DNA from: a virus
Lineage: Duplodnaviria > Heunggongvirae > Uroviricota > Caudoviricetes
Virus record (IMG/VR): IMGVR_UViG_2879748301_000007
Length of the DNA: 19,942 bases
Direction: 5' to 3' (one strand)
In this document: piece by piece, positions 17,452 through 19,942 of the stretch
Numbering within the stretch: position 1 is the first letter of the stretch
Layout of the letters: the number at the start of each line of letters is the position of its first letter
Program-made: the position numbers

Positions 17452-19942
17452 TGACCACTTCATTTCGCATTGGCTAACTCCGTCGTGTATTTAGCATCGA
17501 GTGCATCAGCAGCACGCTGGCGCTGCTGCATGTCAGTAATGGTTGCGTTCGCCAGCTTCAGTTCTCTTGCGTTTTTGTCGCGCTGCTCTTTGTAGGTAAT
17601 GGCGTTATCACGGTAATGATTAACAGCCCATGACAGGCAGACGATGATGCAGATAACCAGAGCGGAGATAATCGCGGTGACTGGATTTGCCCCTATATTT
17701 CCAGACATCTGTTATCACTTAACCCATTACAAGCCCGCTGCCGCAGATATTCCCGTGGCGAGCGGTAACCCAGCGCACTATGCGGATGCCATTCGTTATA
17801 ATGCTCGAACGCCTCTGCAAGGTTCTTTGCTGCCGTTAACCCGTCTGGTTTGGGCATGATACTGATGTAGTCACGCTTTATCGTTTTCACGAAGCTCTCT
17901 GCTATTCCGTTACTCTCCGGACTCCGCACCACCGTGTTCTTCGGTTCAAGTCCCAACATCCGTAAGCGCCCCGAGAAGTACGTAGCGTAAGGATTATTTT
18001 ACAGACGAGAAGTTCCAGGGCAGCAGTTCATGCACTTGGTTCGACGGCCAGTCATTGAGCTTCTCGATCACTTCGCGCAACCAGTCCTCCGGCTCCACTT
18101 CGTTCTGTTTGCAGGTGACCAGCAGACTGTAGATGATCGCCGCACTTTCTCCTCCCTTGTCTGAGCCGAAAAAGAGATAATTTTTTCTTCCAACCGCCAC
18201 CGATCGTAACGCGTTTTCACCGATGTTGTTGTCTATTTCCACCCGGCCGTCACGACAGAACTCGTTCAGCGCATTCCAGTGATTCAGGATATAGTCGAAC
18301 GCCTTCGCCATCTCCGCATGTTTCGACAGCGTTTTCCTCTGCAACTGTATCCAGTCGTACAACGACTGCATCAACTGGACGCTTCTGGCTTTTCTGACTG
18401 CAAGCCGTTCCTCTGCCGGACTGCCACGTATCTCCGCTTCTATGTCGTATAACTCTGCTATCCGTCTGAGCGCTTCCTGAGTCATTTCTGTCGGACGGCG
18501 CACATCCTCGTCATGGATTTTTCGGCGGGCGTGGGCCAGGCCCCCGGCTTCCTTCACCCGGCCCGTTTCGTACAGTACGTTATAACCTGCATAGGCATCA
18601 GCCTGCAGTACGCCCTGATACTTTGCCAGGTGGAGCTGCGGATGTTCTCCTTTGCGATCTGCCGAATACGCGAACCAGACGGCTGCCGGCAGGGATGAAC
18701 CCGCATTACGATCATCCCTGACGTATACCCACAGACGACCCGTTTTCGTCTTTCCGTTCCCCGGGGCCAGTACTTTCACCGGAGTGTCATCTGCGTGCAC
18801 CTTTCCTGCCTCCAGAACATAGTCATTCAGCGCTATATACAGAGGACGGAGTTTGTCTGCCATTTCTGATACCCAGCGCACCATGGTATTACGGCTCAGC
18901 TCCACGCCCTGTCGCGCGTATATTTCTGACTGGCGATATAAAGGGATATGTTCCATATATTTGCTGACCAGGATCCGTGCAAGTAACCCTGCACTGGCAT
19001 AACCGCGTTCGATCGGTTTAGGAGGAAGTGGTGCCTGAACGATGACATCACACCGGCTACAGGCCAGTTTGGGACGTATGGTTTCGATAACTTTAAAGGC
19101 GGTATTAATGATATCCAGTTGCTCTGAGATTGTTTCCCCCATTTCTTTCAGAACACCTCCACAGGCCGGGCAACTGGTTTCAGCAGGCAGAAGGCGATGT
19201 GTCTCCCGGGGAAGTTCTGCCGGCAGCGGTTTTCGTGAAGATTTTCGTCCCGGGAATTCAGGCTTACTGGCGATCGGGTTTTCTGACGGGGGACTGGTGT
19301 CAGGTGAATCTGTGACTGACGATGCATCTTCCAGAAGATTTCTGGCTGTGTTCAGCCGGTTTTCCAGTTCCGACAGTCGTTTTTCTGCCTGTCGGATCTG
19401 ATTTTCAAGCTTATGACGCTTTTTCTCTGAACTCTGGCCGAACAACATACGACGCAACCTGTCGAGTTGCGCTTTCAGCCGTTCAATTTCCTGCTCATAG
19501 CCCGCGACCTGACAGGCATACTGTCGAAGCCGACTCTGTTGCTTACGCAACATGGCTTTAAGCAGCTCAATATCATCGGGGAGTTCATTGTTCATTCCCT
19601 TGTTTTATCACGGGTTATATCCGGATGCCAGGCCGTTCTGTCCGTTTGGGATGTTGCCACGCGATCCCCTCCAGTAGCATGGATAACTGAGCTGGCGTCA
19701 GGTGCACTTTCCCTTCCCGGGTCACCGGCCAGACGTTTGGTGAACAGGCATAACCCGTCACGATCGGCCCACAGTATTTTCACCATTTTGCCACTGCGGC
19801 CCCGGAAGACGAAGATATGCCCGGAGAACGGGTCATCTTTCAGCGTGTTCTGCACCTTCGAAGCCAGGCCATTGAAGCCACAACGCATATCTGTGATGCC
19901 AGCGATGATCCAGATTTTGGTACCGGTCGGCAGCGTTATCAT

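Follow-up and report, generated by a model that had tools for sequence, protein, structure and literature searches.

An insertion-sequence-bounded remnant of the spanin gene Rz in a lambdoid prophage of Shigella flexneri and its probable inversion between two copies of IS911

The virus record IMGVR_UViG_2879748301_000007 (Caudoviricetes), whose 19,942 nt are here called the window, contains a piece of a phage lysis gene that lies on the minus strand between insertion sequences (IS), away from any lysis cassette. Hok, QueH and the cro/replication genes of the same stretch lie on the plus strand. This raises the questions of how the piece came to be turned against its early region and of whether it still encodes anything of use. 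The best explanation, and one that we regard as highly probable, is that it is a non-functional Rz remnant from a lambdoid prophage of S. flexneri, cut by IS elements and inverted by way of two IS911 copies in the course of five events. Read on both strands, positions 15800-19942 hold hok/mok (15791-16003, plus strand), IS911, the Rz fragment (Rz'), an IS2 fragment (IS2') and ISSfl3, in that order. The rest of the window is a Shigella prophage remnant with ipaH, several copies of IS600, an antirepressor, a cI/cro pair, decayed replication genes, QueH and hok. The cargo of the prophage comprises ipaH, QueH and hok.

The Rz-derived stretch (17463-17681, minus strand) comes from the 5' part of an i-spanin gene of the Rz type. 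It is 219 bp long and in frame, it corresponds to codons 4-76 by homology to the Rz genes of phage HK620 and of L029 (CP026875.1), a related Shigella prophage, and its translation ends in ELANAK. A preliminary description of the locus had put the surviving codons at 4 to about 76, which the two comparisons make exact, and had drawn the feature on to 17961, thereby including the IS2 fragment; Rz sequence goes no further than 17681. A 220-nt query (17463-17682, minus strand) matched Rz genes in 258 phage records. The best phage match is HK620 Rz, with 95.4% identity (E = 2e-94) over nt 10-228 of the HK620 gene, and the uninterrupted Rz of L029 is identical to the fragment at 218 of 219 bases. 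The fragment is confirmed as real, with a match far beyond chance. In the uninterrupted gene the embedded o-spanin gene Rz1 lies in the +1 frame (MRKLKMMLF...) and begins at Rz nt 221, and the site of IS911 follows nt 228. Because Rz1 begins at nt 221, only its first 8 nt, ATGCGAAA (17463-17470, minus strand, placed by comparison with uninterrupted Rz), are found in the window, and the remainder of Rz1 is not present there.

Mobile elements close in on the fragment from both sides. On its left is a complete IS911 of the IS3 family (16214-17462, plus strand), 1249 bp long, with 99.1% full-length identity to annotated IS911, IRL at 16214, IRR at 17462, a 100-aa orfA and an orfB with Pfam rve domains. 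In the window this IS911 lacks a 3-bp target duplication, having CCC at its left flank and TTT at its right. Its left end coincides with a deletion scar (16211-16216, no strand assigned), where the IS911 IRL directly follows sequence from about 210 bp downstream of hok. On the right of the Rz fragment are the last 281 bp of an IS2 (17682-17962, minus strand; approximately IS2 nt 1051-1331), which include the right inverted repeat, encode the C-terminal 88 aa of the transposase (PF13683 rve_3) and are 99.3% identical to positions 10136-10416 of a full IS2 at 9086-10416 in the same window. Compared with a full 1331-bp IS2, the left part and any 5-bp duplication are gone. Base 17962 may be assigned either to IS2 or to the neighboring ISSfl3, an IS66-family element whose right end (with GTAAGCG as the end in the window), tnpC (17994-19595) and tnpB fill positions 17963-19942 on the minus strand. 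This element has 97-99.7% identity to annotated ISSfl3 and Pfam IS66 domains, and it runs off the window; its tnpA is found in the extended loci. A plasmid match, H16 (NZ_CP065616.1), was considered as a second case of the same IS2-ISSfl3 junction and rejected, as it has a full IS2 beside a broken ISSfl3, which is a different junction.

Between these elements runs a chimeric open reading frame (ORF) of 82 aa (17460-17708, minus strand), made up of 9 codons from the IS2 right end and 73 Rz codons and closed by a stop from the IS911 end. As the preliminary description had recognized, start and stop come from IS termini, the ATG lying inside the IS2 right end and the TGA being the last three bases of IS911. 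The ORF is an accident of two IS ends.

The exact sequence of this ORF was used for a look-up that led to S. flexneri chromosomes in three arrangements, types A, B and C (L numbers denote fetched loci). Type A (L008, which is CP000266.1 of S. flexneri 5 str. 8401, L010 and L011) reads on one strand QueH-hok-Rem-DUF1367-YbcO-Q-(S' holin remnant)-IS600-R'-ISSfl3-IS2'-Rz'-IS911-'Rz/Rz1, beyond which come a DedA/VTT gene on the other strand and then terminase, portal and capsid genes. Its early region is 99.9% identical to window positions 14175-16217, so type A is the same prophage as that of the window. The chimeric endolysin R' has a cluster entry on only 7 contigs, all apparently of type A; in relatives the neighboring endolysin is RrrD-like. 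Type B (L003, L006 and L007; its junction ORF is AAP16367.1 of strain 2457T) runs serS-dmsABC-ycaC-ycaD-ISSfl3-IS2'-Rz'-IS911 and continues on the opposite strand with a 5' piece of Q, YbcO, DUF1367 interrupted by IS600, Rem, hok and QueH. Type C comprises L002, L004, L005, L009 and the window, which has 99.99% identity to L004; this type differs from type B in that IS911 lies directly beside the hok-downstream region.

The uninterrupted relative L029 shares its early region and its QueH, hok, Rem, YbcO and Q modules with the window at 99.3%, and in it hok-Rem-DUF1367-YbcO-Q-S-R-Rz are collinear. In contrast to the fragment, the Rz genes of L029 and HK620 encode all 156 aa, keep collinearity with the early genes and have no IS element in or beside the gene. 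When L029 is compared with the window DNA, the early region and the Rz stretch match in opposite orientations. The Rz fragment is therefore inverted with respect to its original context, in keeping with the strand opposition pointed out in the preliminary description. The fragment was not found in this arrangement without IS elements: all fetched loci that have it also have IS flanks, and the uninterrupted Rz copies are all collinear with Q-S-R.

The junctions of IS911 in the three arrangements provide the mechanistic detail. In type A the element is flanked by GCGAAA on one side and by AAAGCTGAAAATG on the other, the mark of a simple insertion that duplicated 3 bp (AAA), and removal of IS911 and one AAA leaves the Rz frame open again to its stop codon. 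In type B the 5' piece of Q ends ...TATATTGGTG at the IS911 IRL, and the IRR still abuts Rz' (in reverse complement). Look-ups of the DedA/VTT gene and of Rz1 brought out the reciprocal junction, which is present in seven assemblies (CP182555.1, L033/L046, and CP102218.1, L037, together with L047, L048, L050 and L054, among them). Here the reverse complement of 'Rz ends ...CAGCTTT at the IRL, IS911 follows, and the IRR meets GTGGCGGTAAG... of the Q 3' part. In these assemblies 'Rz abuts the left end of IS911 at the same nucleotide as in type A, and beyond the junction Q3' is collinear through S' and IS600 with 99.7% identity to type A. Uninterrupted Q reads TATATTGGTG followed directly by GCGGTAAG, so that GTG occurs once on each product, as expected for an IS911 target duplication in Q. 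In phage orientation the Q copy of IS911 runs from IRL to IRR and the Rz copy from IRR to IRL; the orientations are opposite, and the two copies are therefore inverted. Given inverted IS911 copies in Q and Rz and the reciprocal junctions, the segment between was therefore inverted. Exchange between the inverted copies would turn around the segment Q3'-S-R-ISSfl3-IS2'-Rz' and would yield exactly both of the observed junctions, and this reading of the sequences is supported. In L035 and L042 IS911 sits at the same Rz nucleotide in flipped orientation, which is unexplained by simple recombination.

The same end product would also arise in one step, if the IS911 in Rz had transposed intramolecularly into Q, duplicating itself and inverting the segment between. 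Each IS911 copy would then keep one old junction (Rz' or 'Rz) and gain one new one (Q5' or Q3'), with GTG duplicated, just as insertion followed by homologous recombination would leave them. A simple insertion of IS911 in Q was not seen among the fetched loci, and the intermediate predicted for the two-step route, a prophage still collinear in which Q and Rz each have a simple IS911 insertion, is likewise absent among them, although with no more than a few dozen loci sampled this absence counts for little as evidence. Elements of the IS3 family, IS911 among them, usually transpose in a copy-out, paste-in manner via a circular intermediate and do not as a rule give rise to replicative intramolecular inversions. 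The one-step inversion is at odds with this usual route, and we consider it unlikely, if still worth keeping in mind beside insertion and exchange.

The preliminary description had left a choice between an inverted lysis module and one from a different prophage. The first part of this choice stands and the second falls. A second lambdoid prophage does lie near ybhC in S. flexneri and has a Q, a holin and a lysozyme of its own, and IS911 links pieces of both prophages in some genomes (L027, L043 and L051), as might be the case if recombination between IS copies in two prophages had brought the Rz fragment beside the early region. Against such an origin, type A shows the identical IS2'-Rz'-IS911 block in collinear order with that early region, the fragment matches at 218 of 219 bases an L029 Rz gene that follows the same hok-Rem-YbcO-Q module, and the reciprocal junction holds Q3' of the same prophage. 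A foreign source for the fragment is thus very improbable.

Inversion within one prophage would lead from type A to type B at the IS911 side, and two further changes would complete the arrangement of the window. Compared with type B, type C has lost about 2.63 kb beside the left end of IS911, comprising Q5', YbcO, DUF1367 with its IS600, and Rem. Window positions 10093-16217 are collinear with 20249-14125 of the type B locus L003, in which IS911 ends at 11495, and in type C the hok-downstream sequence is fused to IS911 without a duplication. The second change lies at the far (IRL) end of ISSfl3. In type A this end abuts codon 163 of the endolysin gene, so that just the final two codons of that gene are missing. 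In types B and C it abuts codon 7 of the chromosomal gene ycaM, the IRL flank ATGGCTGGGAATGTTCAGGAA being the ycaM start. The preliminary description had suggested a search for endolysin or holin remnants outside the window, and none lies past its right end; ycaM is followed by ycaD, ycaC, dmsCBA and serS. For the rest of ycaM and for pflA, no match was present in any fetched locus. A look-up of ISSfl3 transposase contexts for a partner junction of the R-ISSfl3 or ISSfl3-ycaM kind returned mostly the same locus and unrelated sites.

The ISSfl3 IRL end has at least four different neighbors across lineages, and the junction of its IRR with IS2' is constant. No arrangement shows the 8-bp duplication of ISSfl3, as TTCAGGAA or TTTGTGGG stands on one side and GGATGTTG on the other. 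From the junction of the endolysin gene with ISSfl3 to that of IS2 with Rz', the phage sequence lacks only 14-15 nt, a gap that is consistent with insertion of IS2 where Rz begins, entry of ISSfl3 into that IS2, and later loss of the IS2 5' part.

The 3' half of the gene survives elsewhere in genomes of the window's type. In CP020339.1, the start of Rz' is at 193,478 (plus strand, L016) and that of 'Rz, which carries Rz1, at 9,984 (minus strand, L051), so that the two halves are 183.5 kb apart on opposite strands, and each abuts an IS911 at the same original Rz nucleotide. A model by deletion only, in which the window's type had lost the late genes together with R and the 3' half of Rz, was therefore rejected, as the DedA/VTT gene and 'Rz/Rz1 occur elsewhere in such genomes and, in CP020339.1, in the same record. 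The IS911 next to 'Rz in CP020339.1 is joined to the replication region of the second lambdoid prophage and not to Q3', and further IS911 exchanges therefore followed.

The history that would account for these junctions has five steps. IS2 would first have inserted into Rz at codon 3/4, ISSfl3 would then have hit IS2, and the first 1050 bp or so of IS2 would have been lost, a step that we read from the junctions. IS911 next entered after Rz codon 76 with the AAA duplication, a state that 8401-type genomes have preserved. Third, a second IS911 in the opposite orientation would have entered the antiterminator gene Q of the same prophage with the GTG duplication, and exchange between the two copies would have inverted Q3'-S-R-ISSfl3-IS2'-Rz', a step to which both reciprocal junctions testify. 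Fourth, a rearrangement at the outer end of ISSfl3 would have joined it to ycaM and left about 180 kb of chromosome between the Rz halves, which is seen through its outcome. Last, the 2.63-kb deletion beside IS911 removed Q5' through Rem and produced the hok-IS911-Rz' order of the window, as comparison of the loci shows. We infer the relative order of these events, and in particular that of the first two. At least five IS-associated events touch the fragment, so the repeated IS-driven rearrangement proposed in the preliminary description was, if anything, understated.

What remains of the protein can be set against the lambda Rz/Rz1 spanin (PF03245/PF06085). Lambda Rz has an N-terminal transmembrane domain (TMD; residues 1-24), a first coiled coil (27-87), a linker, a second coiled coil (121-150) and a C-terminal region (PMC5295617). 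The fragment is homologous to it and likewise has a predicted N-terminal type II anchor followed by coiled coil 1, retaining the transmembrane helix and about three-quarters of that coiled coil. The single predicted TMD of the ORF is a 19-residue stretch (residues 10-28; hydropathy maximum 2.63), which is the counterpart of the lambda TMD at residues 1-24 (PMC5295617). Everything past the middle of coiled coil 1 is missing, including the linker and coiled coil 2, and the fragment, which stops at codon 76 of about 156, is without the periplasmic Cys98 and Cys153 of the full-length relative. Thus, of the marks of an i-spanin, Rz homology and the N-terminal TMD are present, and the complete periplasmic domain and the partner Rz1 are absent. 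Unlike the lambda pair, the fragment also has no lysis cassette, and its start and stop are foreign. The embedded +1-frame Rz1 and the position after holin and endolysin that characterize the lambda genes are seen in uninterrupted relatives. In L028, L029 and L030, and in part in type A, Rz does come behind holin and endolysin and is collinear with the late operon, but this is not so in the window, where IS911 and ISSfl3 lie on either side. No holin or endolysin gene lies near the fragment in the window.

Nonsense mutations across the periplasmic domain of lambda Rz, up to codon 152, abolish lysis (PMC5295617). With nothing of Rz left beyond the anchor and a portion of coiled coil 1, and with Rz1, holin and endolysin missing from its neighborhood, the ORF would be unable to act as a spanin. 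It nevertheless scores above the curated cut-off for PF03245 Phage_lysis (E = 2.3e-10), with profile positions 1-48 of 126 covered, and in S. flexneri it is labeled 'endopeptidase' or 'lysis protein' in GenBank. We take this already annotated fragment to be what is left of a dead i-spanin gene, Rz.

Could the 82-aa chimera instead be an expressed and selected small membrane protein, such as a truncated spanin that hinders lysis by incoming lambdoid phages? Its sequence recurs unchanged on 241 contigs (ABF02960.1 of strain 8401 and ADA73215.1 of strain 2002017 included) and through three rearrangement states, and the ORF retains a strong predicted transmembrane helix and an ATG start. All of the carriers are S. 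flexneri, however, and recent common descent therefore accounts for this spread and conservation. The reading frame, moreover, is set only by accidental IS ends, and a promoter and terminator scan of 17300-18100 found no sigma-70-like promoter or terminator on the ORF strand. When lysis-defective lambda Rz alleles were tested for dominance, lysis was not blocked (PMC5295617), which also speaks against such a role. Selection for the chimera is hard to credit, and we infer that the ORF is neither expressed nor functional. That it might act as an expressed, membrane-anchored, truncated i-spanin that pairs with and poisons the spanins of superinfecting lambdoid phages is an idea drawn from sequence features to which we give next to no probability.

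The remnant is, in kind, a known feature, as leftovers of spanin genes are common in defective prophages. E. coli K-12 carries spanin remnants in its cryptic prophages, namely rzpD/rzoD in DLP12, rzpR/rzoR in Rac and rzpQ/rzoQ in Qin. These are likewise lysis-cassette leftovers in defective lambdoid prophages; the S. flexneri fragment differs from them in being IS-bounded on both sides, inverted and about 180 kb from its 3' half. Rearrangement between IS copies is also documented in the same species. A comparison of Sf8401 with Sf301 described IS-mediated rearrangements, six inversions and one translocation, and named IS629, IS1, IS4, ISSfl2 and IS600 as mediators, with IS911 and the Rz locus unmentioned (PMC1550401). 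Those rearrangements include strain 8401, which is of type A, and belong to the same mechanism class, and the IS911 pair in Q and Rz is worked out in the present analysis. The feature is thus already known in kind and already annotated, and it is an ordinary case of the well-known decay of Shigella genomes.

The locus has little significance beyond annotation, where the 'endopeptidase' or 'lysis protein' ORF is to be read as a pseudogene fragment whose frame is set by two IS ends. It does offer an example at nucleotide level of inverted IS911 copies in one prophage splitting a gene, with the halves now about 180 kb apart. Its three junction states (8401-type, 2457T-type and 2002017-type) might serve as lineage markers. 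The locus also illustrates why short-read assemblies break there, and many of the database copies of the ORF are partial and lie at contig ends.

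The Rz locus, which carries the i-spanin gene and, embedded in it, the o-spanin gene Rz1, is found in further lineage-specific states that involve the IS66-family element ISSfl3. One locus, L055 (CP100042.1, 1-5200), retains the antiterminator gene Q, the holin gene and a gene for a full 165-aa endolysin; next come an oppositely oriented ISSfl3 and, after it, Rz1. Two others, L025 and L038, have the left inverted repeat (IRL) of ISSfl3 inside the 3' part of Rz. This end of ISSfl3 has repeatedly been active.

IS911 is also found in flipped orientation at fixed sites. Beside the 3' half of Rz in L035 (CP097828.1) and L042 (CP034060.1), the element is flipped at the exact nucleotide used in other lineages, so that the Rz sequence (AAAGCTG...) adjoins the right inverted repeat (IRR) of IS911, whereas in the type A genomes with a collinear lysis cassette it adjoins IRL. 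A second example is provided by the site upstream of DnaC, where IS911 lies at the identical nucleotide but in opposite orientation in L033 (CP182555.1) and L051 (from CP020339.1). The IS911 end that adjoins GACATTCTG is IRL in L033 and IRR in L027 and L051. Recombination between IS copies cannot swap the end of IS911 that touches a given flank. Insertion of IS911 beside the end of a resident IS911 may have caused the flipped elements.

The effect of IS911 on the lysis genes is not limited to Rz. In type A (strain 8401, L008, 11496-11700), its insertion in Rz also removes MRK, the three codons that open the signal peptide of the 68-aa Rz1, leaving a reading of 63 aa that begins MMLF. With the MRK codons lost to IS911, the o-spanin gene is damaged even where the cassette is still collinear.

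In the window, the replication genes (12405-13935) are decayed when compared with the uninterrupted relative L029 (CP026875.1). In the O-like gene, 11 bp have been lost at ~12995 and 6 bp gained at ~12815 relative to L029. The DnaC-like gene is in two pieces (13189-13530 and 13582-13935), a split that involves no indel. The region 2611-7331 holds a full plus-strand IS600 (2611-3874) and, inverted relative to it, an outer minus-strand IS600 (4797-5631 plus 6896-7331) interrupted by a nested inner copy, also on the minus strand (5632-6895). The outer halves share a 3-bp overlap that looks like a target duplication. Flanked by the two inverted IS600 units is a 0.9-kb segment, which carries an ORF of 214 aa (4175-4819).

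The window begins at base 1 with a complete 603-aa ORF for the E3 ligase effector ipaH (1-1812). As ipaH lies upstream of the early region, the remnant is one of the S. flexneri chromosomal ipaH-carrying prophage islands. Genes for epoxyqueuosine reductase QueH (DUF208; 14934-15620), whose 228-aa reading is identical to SFxv_0936 of S. flexneri 2002017, and the hok/mok toxin (15791-16003) separate the replication genes of this prophage from its nin/Q region. Outside the window, a DedA/VTT-family membrane protein gene (L008 11831-12343; also L023-L042) is located on the opposite strand between Rz and the terminase genes. Database copies of this gene come almost exclusively from Shigella, its nearest relatives otherwise being in Citrobacter (73-78% identity), and it appears to be prophage cargo.
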